Positions 53,960 to 59,517 of a stretch of 64,000 nucleotides of DNA are shown in pieces (position 1 is the stretch's first letter; the number at the start of each line of letters is the position of its first letter). The stretch is from Escherichia phage vB_EcoM_Alf5: the sequence record KX377933; one strand, 5' to 3'. Under the pieces are notes generated by a model, which did no database searches, was not told the DNA's origin, and worked only from the letters and a program-made list of their open reading frames with translations. Both the position numbers and the translations under genes were made by a program.

Positions 53960-55156
53960 ATGAACAAAGTACAGATTATTAAAAAGAACGGCTCACTCGA
54001 AGAACCAGATATCAAAAAAGTTTTAGCAGCAGTCACTAAGTCAGCTAATAGGGTTGGGTATAAAGAACTACCACCAGATGTTACCCAAGCTCTTGAGTCA
54101 GCATTTATGAGGATTCTGGTAAAATCCACTAAGCAGAATAATTTACTCATTTCAGTAAATGATATTCACAGTATTGTTGAGGGTGCTTTGGCAGAAGTCA
54201 ATCACGAGATTTATGAGTCTTACTCAACATATAGAAATTACCGTAAAGAAGTTGCTCAAAATTGGGATGAACTCTACCAGAAGACCAAAGATACACTCTT
54301 CTTAGGCGACAGAGAGAATGCTAACTTTGACAGCAGTTTAATTTCTACAAAAGGCTCAATTATTCGTGGTTACCTGACTAAAGAAATCTTTAAACAGTAC
54401 CATTTAACACCAGAGGAACTTGAAGCCATTGAAAAAGGGTTTATCTATATCCATGATTTAAGAGACCTAATTTTTGGTGGTATCAACTGTTGCCTGTTTG
54501 ACATTGGTAAAGTGCTGAAAGGTGGCTTTGAAATGTCTGGCATTGAATACTGTGAACCGAAGTCTGTGCTGTCAGCCTTACAGGTTATTGGTGATGTAGT
54601 TCTTTCAGCAACTGCACAGCAATTTGGTGGCTTTACTTTAGCAGAGATTGATAAGGTACTTGTACCGTATGCTAAGAAGTCTTTAGTGTACCACTCAGAG
54701 AAAGCTGAAGAGTACGGAATCCCTAAAGAGCAACACTATAATTACGTAATGGAGCAATTACAGAATGAGTTAACACAAGGTTTCCAATCTCTTGAAATGA
54801 AACTTAACACTGTTCCTTGCAGTCGCGGTGATTTTGCATTTACTACTCTGACATTTGGTCTGTTGGAACCAGATATGCACAATGAAGATAACCGTCTTCA
54901 GTTTATGATTGCCAATACAATCCTTAACGTAAGGATGAACGGGCAAGGAAAAAGCAAAAAACCTGTTGTGTTCCCTAAACTTGTGTATATCTATGAAGAA
55001 ACGAGACATAAGCTTGATGTATGCCAAGCAAGGTTGTTTGAAAAAGCTATTGAGTGTTGCTCTAAAGCTATGTATCCAGATTTCTTAAGTGTAACTGGAC
55101 ATGGTGCTGTAGCAGAGGCTTTTGAGCGTTCTGGTAAGGTAATTTCCCCGATGGGT
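53960..55156 (+). CDS. nrdD: anaerobic ribonucleotide reductase, exon 1
   Basis: 399 codons ending ...GKVISPMG, then TAA at 55157-55159; continues in frame at 55899. Confidence 0.75.
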
Positions 55157-55898
55157 TAACAAGCTCTATAGCTCATCTAAAACGTGCCTAAACAGGGAAA
55201 CTCTACAGATGTAGACAATCCTGTGCTAAATGATGTACGATGTAAGAAACTATACAACATAGGAGTCTTACATGCCAAACTATCACGTCACTGAAGATGG
55301 AAAAGTCTTTAGGGAAAATGGTGTAGAGCTTACGCAGTGGAAATCCAACACTGGGTATATGAAAGTGAGGTTTTACGGTAAGAAGAATCGTGACATGTAT
55401 GTCCACAGGTTAGTTGCTGAGAAATATGTACCTAACCCGAACAATCTTCCAATTGTAAAACATAAGGACGATAACAAACTAAATAACCACGTATCTAACT
55501 TAGAATGGGGTACTCATTCTGATAATGCTAAAGAAGGTTATGAGAATGGATGTTACAAGTTCCACAAGCGTTCATATGCCGTGAAAGCCACACACAAAGT
55601 GACAAAGGAAGTTATTGTTACTAAGTCAATACGAGAGTTATCCAATATACTTGGATACAATCGCAAGACCATCTCTTCAATATTGAAGGGTGTAAAAGAG
55701 CATAATAACTTCGAATATGAGTTTGAATACATCTAAATGCCGAACGACTAACCGTGATGAATGTAGCGGTGTAGGGTCAAGCGACTCGAAATGGTACGCT
55801 ACTTAGAAATAAGTAGAAGATATAGTCTGGACTTACTGGCGACAGTAAGCAGCTTGAATAAAGCGGGGTAAGCTTAGCGAACTTACCTGAACAATAAG
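55157..55898 (+). mobile_element. self-splicing intron (group I inferred) interrupting nrdD, carrying a homing endonuclease ORF
   Basis: 742 nt between exon 1 ending in U (55156) and exon 2; last intron nucleotide is G (55898); boundaries inferred from reading-frame continuity. Confidence 0.6.
55272..55736 (+). CDS. HNH homing endonuclease (intron-encoded)
   Basis: AGGAG before ATG 55272; HNH motif VKHKDDNKLNNHVSNLEWGTHSDN; lies wholly inside the nrdD intervening sequence. Confidence 0.75.
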   Translation: MPNYHVTEDGKVFRENGVELTQWKSNTGYMKVRFYGKKNRDMYVHRLVAEKYVPNPNNLPIVKHKDDNKLNNHVSNLEWGTHSDNAKEGYENGCYKFHKRSYAVKATHKVTKEVIVTKSIRELSNILGYNRKTISSILKGVKEHNNFEYEFEYI

Positions 55899-56846
55899 TG
55901 TAGAGCATTTTTATCACCATACCATAACGAATATGGTGAAGAGTTTTATGTAGGTCGTGCTAACATTGGTGCTGTATCTTTGAACTTACCAATGATTTAC
56001 CAGTATTCTAAAGAGAATGGATTAGATTTCTGGAAAGAGCTTGATAAGTACCTAGAAATGATTCGCAGCTTCCACAAGAAACGTTATGAAATGATTGCTA
56101 ATATGCCAGCAAGTTCTAACCCTCTTGCATTCACACAAGGTGGTCTGTACAAAGGGAATAAGAAACCTACTGACAGGGTTGGTTGGGATATCGTGAAGTC
56201 CTTCACAGCTTCTTTTGGGGTTACTGCGCTTGATGAGCTATCTGTTCTTGCTGAAGGTAAACGACTTCATGAAGTTGGAAGCTGTAGTTTTGCATACGAT
56301 GTTCTGGAATACATCAACATGAAAACTGAAGAGTTTAAAAATGAAGATGGCTTCTTATATGCAGTCTATGGTACTCCAGCAGAATCACTTTGTGGAACTC
56401 AGCTAAAACAGTTCAGAGATATGTTTGGCGTTATCAAAGGTGTTTCTGATAAGGAATACTTTACAAACAGCTTCCATATGAATGTTGCAGCAGACATTAC
56501 ACCATTTGAGAAGCAGGACTTAGAAGAACCCTTCTTCCATATCTGTAGAGGCGGTAGAATCCAGTATGTAAGAGTAGCTAACCCAGAAAACTTATCAGCA
56601 CTTAAGAGTTGTATTACGAGAGGTATGTTGAAAGGTTTCTATCAGGGACTTAACTTTGACTTAGCAATCTGTGAACATTGTGGTAACAGACCAAAGGCTG
56701 ATGTTGAAGAATGTGAGGTTTGTCATTCACACGATATCTCTGTGATTAACAGGGTGTGCGGATATCTGGGATGGACTAAGATTAAAGGTGAATCCCGAAT
56801 GAATGATGCAAAAATCGCTGAGATTCGTGACAGAATTTCTATGTAA
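55899..56846 (+). CDS. nrdD: anaerobic ribonucleotide reductase, exon 2
   Basis: In-frame continuation CRAFLSPYHNEYG...; C-terminal zinc ribbon CEHCGN...CEVCHSHD and glycyl-radical motif RVCGYLG; joined product ~714 aa. Confidence 0.7.
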   Translation, partial: CRAFLSPYHNEYGEEFYVGRANIGAVSLNLPMIYQYSKENGLDFWKELDKYLEMIRSFHKKRYEMIANMPASSNPLAFTQGGLYKGNKKPTDRVGWDIVKSFTASFGVTALDELSVLAEGKRLHEVGSCSFAYDVLEYINMKTEEFKNEDGFLYAVYGTPAESLCGTQLKQFRDMFGVIKGVSDKEYFTNSFHMNVAADITPFEKQDLEEPFFHICRGGRIQYVRVANPENLSALKSCITRGMLKGFYQGLNFDLAICEHCGNRPKADVEECEVCHSHDISVINRVCGYLGWTKIKGESRMNDAKIAEIRDRISM

Positions 56847-56908
56847 AACTTGACAAGGTGATGTGGGTCTTGATAGGCTTGCATCACCTTTTTATTTGGA
56901 GTTACATT

Positions 56909-57244
56909 ATGGACTTGTGGCTTTATGTAGCAGTTTGTGGGATTGTATGTCTGATAATCTTATTTATTCTTGGAGTAATGCGATTTAGAGATATTATACA
57001 GTCAGATTTTTTGCCTGAGTTTGCCATGATGGTTGGAGTTATTGCACTTTGTGTCTTGGCGGTGTTCTATTCATACAAAACTGTGATACGGATGAAGGCA
57101 AACAATTGTGTAAAAACTCATCAACATCGTGAGGTTACTTATTTTGTGAGTGTACTTAGTGGGAACACCACTGTACTTGTCCCACAAACTTCTGTAGAGT
57201 ATCTTTACACATGTGATAATGGTAAAACTATATGGTGGAATTAA
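56909..57244 (+). CDS. small membrane protein
   Basis: Two hydrophobic helices; ATG 56909 after TTGGAG (ORF-track start 56858 is GTG). Confidence 0.35.
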   Translation: MDLWLYVAVCGIVCLIILFILGVMRFRDIIQSDFLPEFAMMVGVIALCVLAVFYSYKTVIRMKANNCVKTHQHREVTYFVSVLSGNTTVLVPQTSVEYLYTCDNGKTIWWN

Positions 57245-57447
57245 CAATGACAACAATCTTAAATGTATTGACACCCATACTACACATAGTAATCTTCTTC
57301 TTTGGTGTTAGTGTTATGGTATGGGGTTTTTCAGACCCACAATGGAATTTCTCATATCATGGTAAGATGGATTTATGGTCATGCTTCAAACCATTTTTAG
57401 GGTTAGCTATAGCATTCAGTGCATTACCAACTAAGGTGAAATTATGA
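57232..57447 (+). CDS. small membrane protein
   Basis: 71 aa, hydrophobic. Confidence 0.35.
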   Translation: MVELTMTTILNVLTPILHIVIFFFGVSVMVWGFSDPQWNFSYHGKMDLWSCFKPFLGLAIAFSALPTKVKL

Positions 57448-58144: not shown

Positions 58145-58630
58145 ATGAATTACATGGAGATTAGACCATTTGACACAGCTAATGGTGAAGGGGTTCGTGT
58201 AAGCCTCTTCGTAGCTGGCTGTAAACATCACTGTGAAGGCTGTTTTAACAGGGAGTCTTGGAAGTTTAATGCTGGTAAAGTGTTCACTTATGCAAACCTA
58301 TACGGAATCATCCAGTTAATGGGTGACGATGCTGTCAGTGGGCTGTCAATACTTGGTGGAGAACCTCTGGATGATAGAAATATTCAAGAGGTTACCGACA
58401 TATGCAAACGTGTTAAAACTGTTTACCCAGAGAAGACTATATGGCTCTGGACAGGTTTTCAACTACACGAAAAAATTCACCTAGATGTGATGAAATATGT
58501 TGACGTGGTGATTGATGGTAAGTATGATTCATCTAAACCAACAGTTAAGCCATATCGTGGTTCTGATAACCAAAACCTATGGAGAAAAGAGTATGGGTGG
58601 CAAGGTGATTGTCAGTGGAGAGCCGAGTAA
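58145..58630 (+). CDS. nrdG: anaerobic ribonucleotide reductase activating protein (radical SAM)
   Basis: 161 aa with Cys cluster CKHHCEGC near the N-terminus; ~1.3 kb downstream of nrdD. Confidence 0.7.
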   Translation: MNYMEIRPFDTANGEGVRVSLFVAGCKHHCEGCFNRESWKFNAGKVFTYANLYGIIQLMGDDAVSGLSILGGEPLDDRNIQEVTDICKRVKTVYPEKTIWLWTGFQLHEKIHLDVMKYVDVVIDGKYDSSKPTVKPYRGSDNQNLWRKEYGWQGDCQWRAE

Positions 58631-58970: not shown

Positions 58971-59194
58971 AAGCAGCACTAGCTTCATTAGGTATGCTCA
59001 CTGGAGTTGATGTGACTCATCTTATGCAGAACTTCAAGATGGATGAGAAGCTGGCTAATGAGATTATGAAAAGTATCTATGTAGGCCGTGGCAAAGGTGG
59101 TAAGAAACAAGCCCATCGTCCGTCTGGTGCAGCAGCTATTAAACGAGCAGCTAAGAAAGCTCGTAACCGTAAACGTAATAATAAGGCTAAATAA
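58937..59194 (+). CDS. hypothetical basic protein
   Basis: 85 aa with Lys/Arg-rich C-terminus. Confidence 0.35.
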   Translation: MGIWNSFKSKVKAALASLGMLTGVDVTHLMQNFKMDEKLANEIMKSIYVGRGKGGKKQAHRPSGAAAIKRAAKKARNRKRNNKAK

Positions 59195-59196
59195 TC

Positions 59197-59517
59197 ATGA
59201 GCAAAATCTATAACACTCGCAAATTACAGATTTTCGTACTGTGTCAGTTTATGGCTAAAGAATACAACTTCTACTATTGTGGTACAGGTTTTATTAGCGA
59301 TGATGATGGCTCATACCTACCATTTAAAGAAGCTGTGAAGCTCTTTAATGAAGAGAAAAACTCTAAGAAAGATATCGAAAAGGTCAAGCTAACCTATAGC
59401 AAGAAAGATAAGAAGATTATCTGCCTAGATAACTTTGTAAAAGTTACTGGAGAAGCAAAAGAGTTTATGGATGAGAGTGAGATTTCATTCACAAGCATCT
59501 TGAAAGTAGTTCAGTAA
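59197..59517 (+). CDS. hypothetical protein
   Basis: 106 aa ORF followed by terminator. Confidence 0.4.
   Translation: MSKIYNTRKLQIFVLCQFMAKEYNFYYCGTGFISDDDGSYLPFKEAVKLFNEEKNSKKDIEKVKLTYSKKDKKIICLDNFVKVTGEAKEFMDESEISFTSILKVVQ

Follow-up and report, generated by a model that had tools for sequence, protein, structure and literature searches.

The anaerobic ribonucleotide reductase gene nrdD of Escherichia phage vB_EcoM_Alf5 (KX377933), a member of the genus Felixounavirus (Felix O1-like phages), is interrupted by 742 nt that open with a stop codon and harbor an ORF for an HNH protein, which raises the question of whether the two parts of the gene are joined by splicing, are translated separately or are no longer used. 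We addressed this question in a window of 64,000 nt, the whole stretch of DNA that was analysed (Table 1). An earlier note made from the letters of the window had read the insert as a group I intron carrying a homing endonuclease gene, and its description of the locus proved accurate. The NrdD-like frame (ORF 53960-55159, 399 aa, in the ORF list and the sequence) ends in ...VISPMG and is closed by TAA at 55157-55159. It resumes at 55899, where the note had put the gap at about 740 nt, as TGT AGA GCA TTT... (CRAFLSPY), and runs through ...RDRISM up to 56846, with the stop codon at 56847-56849. As the note had also remarked, the last base of exon 1 (55156) is T (U in the RNA) and the last base of the insert (55898) is G, and the HNH ORF, from its ATG at 55272 to the TAA at 55734-55736, lies wholly within the insert with its own ribosome-binding site, AGGAG (55261-65), six nt upstream of the ATG. 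From these features and the comparisons described below, the insert is very probably a mobile self-splicing td-type group I intron located between the Gly399 and Cys400 codons of nrdD.

Joining 55156 to 55899 yields an NrdD of 714 aa in which SPMG/CRAF are residues 396-403. The full domain set of a class III ribonucleotide reductase NrdD, namely an ATP-cone, the NRDD barrel with the catalytic cysteine, a zinc ribbon and a C-terminal glycyl-radical motif, is found in one polypeptide only once the exons are joined. Pfam NRDD covers residues 119-712 of the joined protein (E 2.6e-114) and ATP-cone matches with E 7.2e-12, while the Gly_radical match, at 21.7 bits, is slightly under its cut-off of 22.2. 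The zinc ribbon and the RVCGYLG motif that the note had recognised correspond to cysteines 657/660/671/674 and residues 684-690, and both the ribbon and the glycyl-radical residue Gly687 are encoded in exon 2. Alignment of the joined protein, one of the checks proposed in the note, places the junction at GGT/TGY (Gly399/Cys400) in intronless homologues, and T4 NrdD (PDB 1H78; E 3e-78) is colinear with it across SPMG/CR, the first residue of exon 2 being the catalytic Cys400, which corresponds to Cys290 in T4 NrdD. The position of the junction is fixed, because intronless sister phages read through the insertion point without interruption as ...CCGATGGGT followed directly by TGCAGAGC...; the intronless allele of phage heid reads ...CCGATGGGTTGCAGAGCTTTCTTATCTCC..., and the exon-exon sequence expected after splicing would be ...CCGAUGGGU followed by UGUAGAGC.... 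The insertion is exactly at the codon of the catalytic cysteine of the anaerobic ribonucleotide reductase gene. Two other interpretations of the insert were rejected. It is not an intein, since it opens with a stop codon, its ORF has its own start and exon 2 is in a different genomic frame. Nor does it occupy the site of the T4 nrdD (sunY) intron, which resides in the same host gene and is likewise a mobile phage group I intron with an internal homing endonuclease gene, but is inserted after ...AFQAYE (around residue 180), about 110 codons before the site used here (the Cys290 codon), and encodes the GIY-YIG enzyme I-TevII.

Table 1. Features of the nrdD locus in the window (positions are those of the 64,000-nt stretch)
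Feature	Position	Strand	Basis or remark
nrdD exon 1	53960..55156	+	399 codons; ATP-cone and N-terminal part of NrdD barrel
Group I intron (predicted)	55157..55898	+	742 nt; Rfam Intron_gpI partial matches, td homology, covariation
Internal guide sequence CUCUAUA/GCUCAUC	55164..55177	+	read from sequence
5' half of ribozyme core	55183..55237	+	pairing and compensatory changes; Rfam P4-P6 match 55192-55275
P3, 5' strand	55183-88	+	
P4	55192-97 with 55219-24	+	
P5	55202-06 with 55211-15	+	
P6	55225-26 (5' strand), 55739-40 (3' strand)	+	
P6a	55232-37 (5' strand), 55728-33 (3' strand)	+	
Hairpin AUGUAAGA/UCUUACAU	55240..55273	+	around HNH ribosome-binding site
HNH homing endonuclease gene (predicted)	55272..55736	+	154 aa + stop; looped out of P6a
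3' half of ribozyme	55728..55898	+	Rfam match 55669-55849 with GAAGAUAUAGUCU motif; covariation
P7	55746-50 with 55823-27	+	
P7.1	55751-55 with 55766-70	+	4/5 pairs covary
P7.2	55774-78 with 55783-87	+	
P3'	55793-98	+	
P8	55799-805 with 55810-16	+	
P9	55832-38 with 55843-49	+	
P9.1	55852-55 with 55861-64	+	
P9.2	55867-72 with 55882-87	+	
Terminal G of intron	55898	+	
nrdD exon 2	55899..56849	+	315 codons + stop
Exon tract linked to intron	55899..55946	+	comparison of 15 alleles
Terminator-like hairpin after nrdD	56855..56890	+	equivalent terminators annotated in phage Meda
nrdG (activating enzyme), functional partner of NrdD	58145..58630	+	ORF list; annotation of 99%-identical phage Tribble

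The element is already known, as it is carried and partly annotated in sister phages. The Felixounavirus records JohannRWettstein (MZ501086) and Meda (MH586731) have a 92-100% identical intron and ORF in the same place, with nrdD annotated as one CDS joined from two pieces that flank the HNH gene. Most of the approximately 90 GenBank records with the element, on the other hand, show nrdD as two fragments, with a pair of distinct 'NrdD' CDSs and an HNH gene. Our literature search for a structural or splicing study of the Felixounavirus nrdD intron returned none, only descriptions of a 'split nrdD' or a homing endonuclease and a methods remark on the boundaries; in the BASEL paper, these were set by comparative annotation. 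The earlier note mentioned neither this partial annotation, nor the kinship with td, nor the ORF-less and intronless allelic states.

These two-fragment records and the published use of the term 'split gene' for Felixounavirus nrdD would fit a free-standing HNH gene that has cut nrdD into two polypeptides assembling into an active enzyme. There is a precedent for such an arrangement in Aeromonas phage Aeh1, in which nrdA is split by mobE into separately translated polypeptides. However, we found no start codon for exon 2 ahead of the catalytic cysteine: TAG and TAA occur in its frame 24-30 nt before the Cys codon, and between these stops and that codon there is no start. Translation from the annotated restarts, TTG 55980 or ATG 55992, would lose 27-31 residues including the catalytic cysteine, and yet these codons are under purifying selection, as is exon 2 as a whole, with 127 synonymous versus 40 nonsynonymous codon differences in the first 27 codons among intron-containing alleles. 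Moreover, the flanks of the ORF make up a whole group I ribozyme that covaries, with a guide fitting both exon ends, and introns of 316 nt that lack the ORF interrupt nrdD in many phages, a remnant that simple insertion of an endonuclease gene would not be expected to leave. We therefore consider separate translation of the two parts very improbable.

It is even less probable that nrdD is a decaying pseudogene, inactivated by the insertion and no longer used. Exon 1 does run into a stop codon, and the phage also has the aerobic nrdAB genes, so nrdD might be dispensable in laboratory conditions. However, exons 1 and 2 are intact and of constant length (1197 + 948 nt) in all ten sampled intron-containing alleles, synonymous codon differences in the exons exceed nonsynonymous ones by 3.2-5.5 to 1 with no relaxed selection, and the interrupted form occurs in about 90 independent isolates. 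Two of the outcomes that the earlier note had named as refuting its reading, two separate proteins or a pseudogene, are thus both contradicted, by the missing exon-2 start and by the mostly synonymous change in the first 27 codons.

The intron reading is supported by the anatomy of the RNA. The 3' part of the guide, GCUCAUC (55171-77), pairs with the end of exon 1, GAUGGGU (55150-56), as P1 with a U55156.G55171 wobble, and its 5' part, CUCUAUA (55164-70), pairs with the start of exon 2, UGUAGAG (55899-905), as a P10 of 7 bp that adjoins P1; all 14 contiguous pairs between the guide and the two exon ends are standard or G.U. Exon and guide covary in P1 of ECGD1, F100 and phiA047, and the pair between exon position -7 and the guide is G-C in the window, C-G in ECGD1 and U.G in F100. 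The intron starts with UAA, which stops exon-1 translation, and terminates with a guanosine. All core helices from P3 to P9.2 are present, P7.1 and P7.2 included, and the final HNH codons UAC AUC (55728-33) double as the 3' strand of P6a. There is no room for a P2 hairpin, as P1 and P3 are separated by UAAAA (55178-82) alone; P2 is also missing in the introns of phiS, ECGD1, F100 and phiA047. P2 is an optional helix among group I introns, and its absence is therefore compatible with group I membership.

The covariance-model search that the earlier note had proposed supported its group I reading by way of a natural ORF-less allele. The Rfam model Intron_gpI (RF00028) gave two matches in the window, one of 33.1 bits (E 1.6e-6, in a search of 861 nt) and one of 15.6 bits to P4-P6, which are under the gathering score of 50 bits because the 465-nt ORF splits the ribozyme model. 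The ORF-less allele, that of phage EC6 (316 nt), 99.4% identical to the window's intron over the shared 316 nt, scored 53.6 bits (E 1.5e-11). At the gathering threshold, Rfam detected only tRNAs in the whole 64-kb window, and a permissive scan of the same 64 kb returned the nrdD match as the only group I match, with no second intron. Identities between full and ORF-less introns were taken from BLAST (97.8-99.4%), since a gap misplaced by MAFFT made its values too low. For the covariation analysis we used six sequences, whose ORFs or long P6a loops were trimmed by hand before alignment. Unaided, RNAalifold recovered P1, P3, P4, P5, P6, P6a, P7.1, P7.2, P8, P9 and P9.2 from these six relatives. 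With P7 added, which completes the P3/P7 pseudoknot, is invariant across the set and is identical to that of td, the structure comprises 64 pairs in 13 helices, with 97.9% of the cells paired and compensatory changes in 29 of the 64 pairs. In comparison, slid controls had only 35-45% of cells paired and 1-4 compensatory pairs, and none of 500 shuffles matched the observed values.

A close relative is the T4 td intron. The two ribozymes are homologous, with about 71% DNA identity across the 3' 160 nt, and have helices P3-P9.2 in common, P7.1 and P7.2 among them. In both introns the 5' exon ends in GGGU, the intron begins with UAA and an endonuclease ORF resides in P6a. However, the td intron interrupts td rather than nrdD, has a P2 hairpin where only 5 nt separate P1 and P3 here, and encodes the GIY-YIG enzyme I-TevI rather than an HNH protein. 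The presence of P7.1 and P7.2, together with the homology to T4 introns, indicates that the intron belongs to subgroup IA, phage T4 td type. We take the td intron to be of subgroup IA2 and presume the same for the intron described here.

The 154-aa ORF appears to encode an HNH endonuclease resembling I-HmuI from Bacillus phage SPO1 (PDB 1U3E), an HNH nicking endonuclease and its best match of solved structure. It contains a Pfam HNH_3 domain (E 3.5e-10; 39.8 bits versus a cut-off of 24.8) and a weak NUMOD1 match (17.6 bits versus 22.8). Residues 3-153 align end to end with residues 12-170 of I-HmuI, at low similarity (E 5e-9, 39.7 bits); the alignment extends through the C-terminal domain of I-HmuI, in line with a putative helix-turn-helix-like (NUMOD1-like) tail. 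Both proteins are encoded in phage group I introns, but their host genes and targets differ, and the protein described here might either nick, as I-HmuI does, or cut both strands. H75, N87 and N96 of I-HmuI are kept as H64, N76 and N85, and its metal ligand Asp74 is replaced by Lys63; endonuclease activity is thus predicted but not assured.

This substitution would fit a functional ribozyme with an endonuclease that is dead or re-purposed, as a maturase, as a nuclease against competing phages or as a relic, and so would the abundance of ORF-less derivatives, which fits the decay phase of a homing cycle. However, the position equivalent to Asp74 is also Lys or Cys in the orthologues of phiS and F100, in introns at the same site, and the catalytic His is kept, as are the two Asn residues. 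Furthermore, the ORF is intact in six of six sampled alleles and in all 59 records with at least 90% identity, and it is under purifying selection: in each of the 15 sampled pairs, codon differences are more often synonymous than nonsynonymous, mostly 3-6 fold and at the least 1.8 fold. Loss or change of the endonuclease function is therefore unlikely, although less remote than the two alternatives weighed above.

How the ORF is expressed was considered at two levels. A hairpin surrounds its ribosome-binding site, with the A and U of the start codon covered by the 3' strand, and might by analogy with T4 intron ORFs be a damper of HNH translation; the fold of 55228-55290 is only modestly stable (-12.1 kcal/mol, z = -2.1). 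A sigma-70 scan for an HNH promoter within the intron gave 5 sites, fewer than the 12.0 expected from shuffles, and the one upstream match at 55212-55241 (9/12) is not evidence of a promoter.

The distribution of the intron argues for mobility. Felixounavirus nrdD exists in three states, which we estimate from record counts at about 59 records with the full intron, about 35 with an ORF-less intron and about 195 with no intron. The intron state is incongruent with nrdD similarity among Felixounaviruses; in LinBro, the intron is 100% identical and the whole nrdD region (exons and intron) is 96.8% identical. A comparison of 15 alleles revealed five fixed differences between intron-containing and intronless alleles (+3, +12, +33, +39 and +48), all in the first 48 nt of exon 2, with T at +3 and +12 on the intron-containing side, and a between-group identity of 78% at +1..+50 versus about 95% at -100..-1 and +51..+300. 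This segment is likely a co-conversion tract or an endonuclease-resistance tract, and exon sequence of some 50 nt that appears to move with the intron is a mark of homing, although selection for P10 pairing or for endonuclease resistance could contribute to the linkage as well as co-conversion. Both the incongruent distribution and the linked tract also argue against a dead or re-purposed endonuclease.

Outside the genus, introns are found at the identical ..MG/CR.. point of nrdD in Krischvirus phiS, Justusliebigvirus ECGD1 and Vibrio phage F100. They have a homologous P2-less ribozyme, with stems that have diverged by compensatory changes. phiS and F100 harbor an orthologous HNH ORF in P6a, while the ECGD1 intron has no ORF, and the ECGD1 record annotates nrdD as a joined CDS; nrdD of F100 bears, upstream of this site, another HNH-containing insertion. 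One lineage, a P2-less td-like ribozyme with an I-HmuI-like HNH gene in P6a, may thus have reached four or more phage groups that are unrelated (Felixounavirus, Krischvirus, Justusliebigvirus and a Vibrio phage), always at the Gly/Cys boundary of nrdD. Felixounavirus would then display all stages of the homing cycle (invasion, ORF loss and intron absence), and the linked tract, about 50 nt long, lies on the 3' side only. We see the case for this scenario as evenly balanced. If it is true, the strictly 3' tract would suggest that the nick or cut falls downstream of the insertion site and that repair is one-sided.

Taken as a self-splicing mobile intron, the element would work as follows. Ribosomes translating exon 1 of the nrdD pre-mRNA would halt at the UAA formed by the first three intron bases. 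With the guide paired to the end of exon 1 (P1, through the U55156.G55171 wobble) and to the start of exon 2 (P10), free guanosine would attack after U55156; the terminal G55898 would then occupy the guanosine-binding site in P7, and the exons would be ligated to GGU/UGU, giving an mRNA for the full 714-aa NrdD with catalytic cysteine, zinc ribbon and glycyl-radical site. Meanwhile, the 154-aa HNH protein would be translated from its own ribosome-binding site in the P6a loop. In a mixed infection, it would nick or cut an intronless nrdD near the insertion site, and during repair the recipient genome would acquire a copy of the intron along with some 50 nt of exon 2.

Our analysis adds no new kind of element or mechanism, as the intron is an ordinary group I intron, and one that escapes the Rfam gathering threshold as long as it contains the ORF. 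Records that show two fragments should instead list one joined NrdD of 714 aa and an endonuclease encoded in the intron. The locus cleanly illustrates the homing cycle as it occurs in nature, within a genus whose phages serve in biocontrol and typing, and it suggests that introns of the td type may pass from one phage family to a distant one and enter the same catalytic-site codon.

Joining position 55156 to 55899 of the window gives a 714-aa NrdD, with SPMG/CRAF at residues 396-403, and reconnects what an earlier note had described as an anaerobic ribonucleotide reductase frame that stops at a TAA after SPMG and resumes in frame as CRAFLSPY about 740 nt downstream. All features in that note were found where it placed them, including the C-terminal zinc ribbon (Cys at 657/660/671/674) and RVCGYLG (684-690), and both its observation and its interpretation hold. 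Pfam identified an ATP-cone (E 7.2e-12) and NRDD (E 2.6e-114, residues 119-712) in the joined protein, with Gly_radical at 21.7 bits, slightly under the cut-off of 22.2. The protein is colinear with T4 NrdD (PDB 1H78, E 3e-78), the alignment running unbroken across the junction, where VSPMGCRSFLS in T4 faces ISPMGCRAFLS in the window. The Cys at the junction corresponds to catalytic Cys290 of the T4 enzyme. In the intronless phages heid, Barry, humlepung, VpaE1 and radambza, nrdD is continuous over 2145 nt and reads ...CCGATGGGT/TGCAGAGC... at the junction. The boundary can slide by one T; group I chemistry requires a U at the exon end and a G at the insert end, and since GGGU/UAAC...AAG/UGU is the only placement giving both, we adopted it, in agreement with the termini proposed earlier.

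Its sequence and predicted fold place the insert among group I introns of the kind found in T4 td. Rfam at the gathering threshold gave no hit at the nrdD insert, and a permissive scan returned two Intron_gpI pieces flanking the ORF. Many sister phages carry a 316-nt version without 426 nt of the ORF; that of EC6, 99.4% identical to the window across the shared parts, scores 53.6 bits (E 1.5e-11) against a family threshold of 50, so that the covariance-model search suggested in the note succeeds on the ORF-less allele. Over its 3'-terminal 160 nt the intron shares ~71% identity with the 3' part of the td intron, and we assigned the helices by reading the window against td (see table). The guide sequence CUCUAUAGCUCAUC has unbroken complementarity to the ligated exon junction GAUGGGU/UGUAGAG. 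As only five nucleotides separate P1 from P3, the P2 hairpin, present in td, is absent here.

Features of the interrupted nrdD gene in the window
Feature	Position	Strand	Remarks
nrdD exon-1 ORF	53960-55159	+	399 aa, C-terminus ...VISPMG, stop TAA 55157-55159
nrdD exon 2	55899-56846, then stop	+	TGT AGA GCA TTT TTA TCA CCA TAC (CRAFLSPY) to ...RDRISM
HNH ORF	55272-55736	+	154 aa, wholly inside insert, AGGAG 6 nt upstream of ATG
Intron_gpI piece, P4-P6 part	55192-55275	+	15.6 bits, permissive Rfam scan
Intron_gpI piece with GAAGAUAUAGUCU motif	55669-55849	+	33.1 bits, E 1.6e-6, permissive Rfam scan
P1	55150-56 with 55171-77	+	U55156.G55171 wobble pair
P10	55164-70 with 55899-905	+	
P3	55183-88 with 55793-98	+	
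P4	55192-97 with 55219-24	+	
P5	55202-06 with 55211-15	+	
P6	55225-26 with 55739-40	+	
P6a	55232-37 with 55728-33	+	
P7	55746-50 with 55823-27	+	
P7.1	55751-55 with 55766-70	+	
P7.2	55774-78 with 55783-87	+	
P8	55799-805 with 55810-16	+	
P9	55832-38 with 55843-49	+	
P9.1	55852-55 with 55861-64	+	
P9.2	55867-72 with 55882-87	+	
Terminal G of intron	55898	+	

We examined covariation in six introns, those of the window, Krischvirus phiS, Vibrio phage F100, Justusliebigvirus ECGD1, T4 td and Aeromonas phage phiA047, from which ORFs or long P6a loops had been trimmed by hand. Unaided, RNAalifold recovered P1, P3, P4, P5, P6, P6a, P7.1, P7.2, P8, P9 and P9.2, with compensatory changes in 29 of the 60 pairs. 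With P7 added as a pseudoknot, standard pairs occupy 97.9% of 379 cells and 29 of 64 pairs are changed on both sides, whereas in controls in which the partner was slid by 1-3 columns pairing dropped to 35-45% and 1-4 pairs were changed in this way; the observed values were not equalled in any of 500 shuffles. The contrast with the slid controls is large despite the small, hand-trimmed alignment.

The free-standing HNH ORF with its own RBS was likewise confirmed. Pfam assigned HNH_3 (E 3.5e-10), with NUMOD1 under threshold, and the best solved-structure match is I-HmuI (1U3E, E 5e-9, residues 3 to 153), a nicking endonuclease encoded by an intron of Bacillus phage SPO1. I-HmuI residues His75, Asn87 and Asn96 align with His64, Asn76 and Asn85, whereas its metal ligand Asp74 is replaced by Lys63; the phiS and F100 orthologues also lack Asp at this position. 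The ORF is looped out of P6a, whose 3' strand consists of the last ORF codons; the td, phiS and F100 introns have the same layout, with a P6a sequence that differs in each and is complementary. The ORF is intact in all six sampled Felixounavirus alleles, and the ratio of synonymous to nonsynonymous codon differences is between 3 and 6 for most of their 15 pairs, with a minimum of 1.8. By tblastn, homologues of ≥90% identity are present in 59 phage records; a coliphage of 145 kb, at 53.7%, is among the next-best matches, and the wider family spans >1400 phage records. A hairpin (55240-47 with 55266-73) overlaps part of the RBS and the start codon with a modest z of -2.1 against shuffled sequences, and possibly regulates the ORF.

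An interrupted nrdD could be a pseudogene, or could encode an enzyme of two polypeptides. Upstream, the reading frame of exon 2 runs into TAA and TAG at 55869-55877, and the sequence between these stops and the Cys codon contains no start codon; the restarts annotated in other records (TTG 55980 or ATG 55992) lose 27-31 residues, including the catalytic Cys. Yet the first 27 exon-2 codons show 127 synonymous versus 40 nonsynonymous differences among ten intron-containing alleles, and ten of their twelve variable codons are purely synonymous. The synonymous/nonsynonymous ratio is 4.5 in exon 1 and 5.5 in the remainder of exon 2, and exon lengths of 1197 and 948 nt are kept in all alleles. The closed frame, the selection pattern and the constant lengths thus argue against both alternatives, which the note had named as grounds for refutation, and favor exons that are still joined and used.

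Several comparisons among alleles point to mobility of the intron. There are three allelic states of nrdD, and record counts suggest ~59 records carrying the full intron, ~35 the ORF-less intron and ~195 none, numbers that include some duplicate GenBank/RefSeq pairs. The spliced nrdD of the window is 94.4% identical to that of heid (intronless) and 97.1% to that of momo (ORF-less intron), versus only ~90-92% to other sampled alleles with intron and ORF; intron state shows no link to host-gene similarity. The intron is also better conserved than its surroundings: the LinBro intron is 100% identical to that of the window, and the entire nrdD region, exons plus intron, 96.8%. Intron-containing and intronless groups share ~95% identity at exon positions -100 to -1 and +51 to +300 from the junction, versus 78% at +1 to +50, where all five fixed differences lie (+3, +12, +33, +39 and +48). 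Co-conversion during homing, or selection for endonuclease resistance, would produce a linked tract of this kind, and the one-sidedness of the tract suggests that the endonuclease acts downstream of the insertion site. The ORF-less form is an in-frame 426-nt deletion retaining the start codon and last nine codons, and since the ORF ends are retained, it appears to have decayed from the full form and not to be ancestral. In Salmonella phage RPN213 (sequence L018), the ORF-less intron has 292 nt rather than 316, which indicates an additional 24-nt deletion in the P6 region.

Homologous introns occupy the identical Gly/Cys boundary of nrdD in phiS and F100, with orthologous HNH genes, and in ECGD1, without an ORF and with a joined CDS annotated. 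The T4 nrdD intron, in contrast, follows ...AFQAYE near residue 180, ~110 codons upstream, and encodes the GIY-YIG enzyme I-TevII instead of an HNH enzyme. By these comparisons, the element pairs a predicted td-like ribozyme with a putative endonuclease resembling I-HmuI, and the site it occupies is a third one within the set of ribonucleotide reductase genes.

Some relatives carry further elements. F100 nrdD (L005:225-2643) is in at least three pieces with two HNH-containing insertions, the first holding ORF 327-1256 and the second being the homologue of the window intron; its last two pieces (2644-3303 and 3304-3684) adjoin, possibly because of a frameshift or a split made during annotation. 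The phiA047 intron (L012:2425-2682), a td-like group I intron of ~255 nt without an ORF or an annotation, seems to interrupt a gene whose two parts are annotated as hypothetical proteins; the exon ends in GAUGGCU, which pairs with the guide GGUCAUC. A MobE-like free-standing HNH homing endonuclease gene lies directly 3' of nrdD in four of the five intronless Felixounaviruses compared (Barry, VpaE1, humlepung and radambza; L013:2456-3000, L015:2479-3001, L014:2403-2998, L016:2370-2914), and the compared stretch of the window (56850-57250) holds only a 128-aa hypothetical ORF (56858-57244). Phage 35FD seems to combine the intron with an ORF, annotated as a hypothetical protein, that matches Barry's MobE-like gene in position and size. 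Two different endonuclease genes may thus target nrdD.

The nrdD region matches 310 phage records, nearly all Felixounavirus (Felix O1-like myoviruses), the best being Escherichia phage vB_Eco_Tribble (99.2%). The local order is nrdA, nrdB, glutaredoxin, a small membrane protein, a terminator, nrdD, several small ORFs and nrdG. Downstream of nrdG, Tribble carries a small gene (~106 aa) with a putative HNH endonuclease annotation, at 74023-74343, which corresponds to about 59150-59470 of the window. Exon 1 at 54857-55056 (-300 to -100) is only 81-85% identical among Felixounaviruses, versus ~95% elsewhere in the gene, independently of intron state; recombination may have made it a mosaic, or it may encode a rapidly evolving surface loop. 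A dense + strand cluster of ~22 tRNA genes (546-5794) is typical for Felix O1-like phages; one at 2862-2949 has a long variable arm and a weak tRNA-Sec score (39 bits, under threshold). 'Campylobacter phage A132' (MG065664.1, 70.7 kb), with the ORF-less intron, and a 'Staphylococcus phage' record contain Felixounavirus nrdD at ~97% identity, probably through mislabelling or contamination of the assemblies.

The Felix O1 genome paper reported introns to be absent in Felix O1; later papers described nrdD as split in some Felixounaviruses, with a homing endonuclease interrupting the gene, one listed 'two introns' under non-coding RNAs without detail, and the BASEL collection paper set intron boundaries by comparative annotation. 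In the JohannRWettstein and Meda GenBank records, the nrdD CDS is joined from two pieces that flank the HNH gene. In the literature searched, we found neither a secondary-structure model of this nrdD intron nor an experiment on its splicing or on cleavage. On sequence grounds, this is a typical example of a mobile group I intron of phages, predicted to splice and to encode an endonuclease. It is widespread and partly annotated in sister genomes, and its novelty is low; the present analysis contributes a structural model, an allele series with three states, and a linked exon tract on one side of the insertion site.
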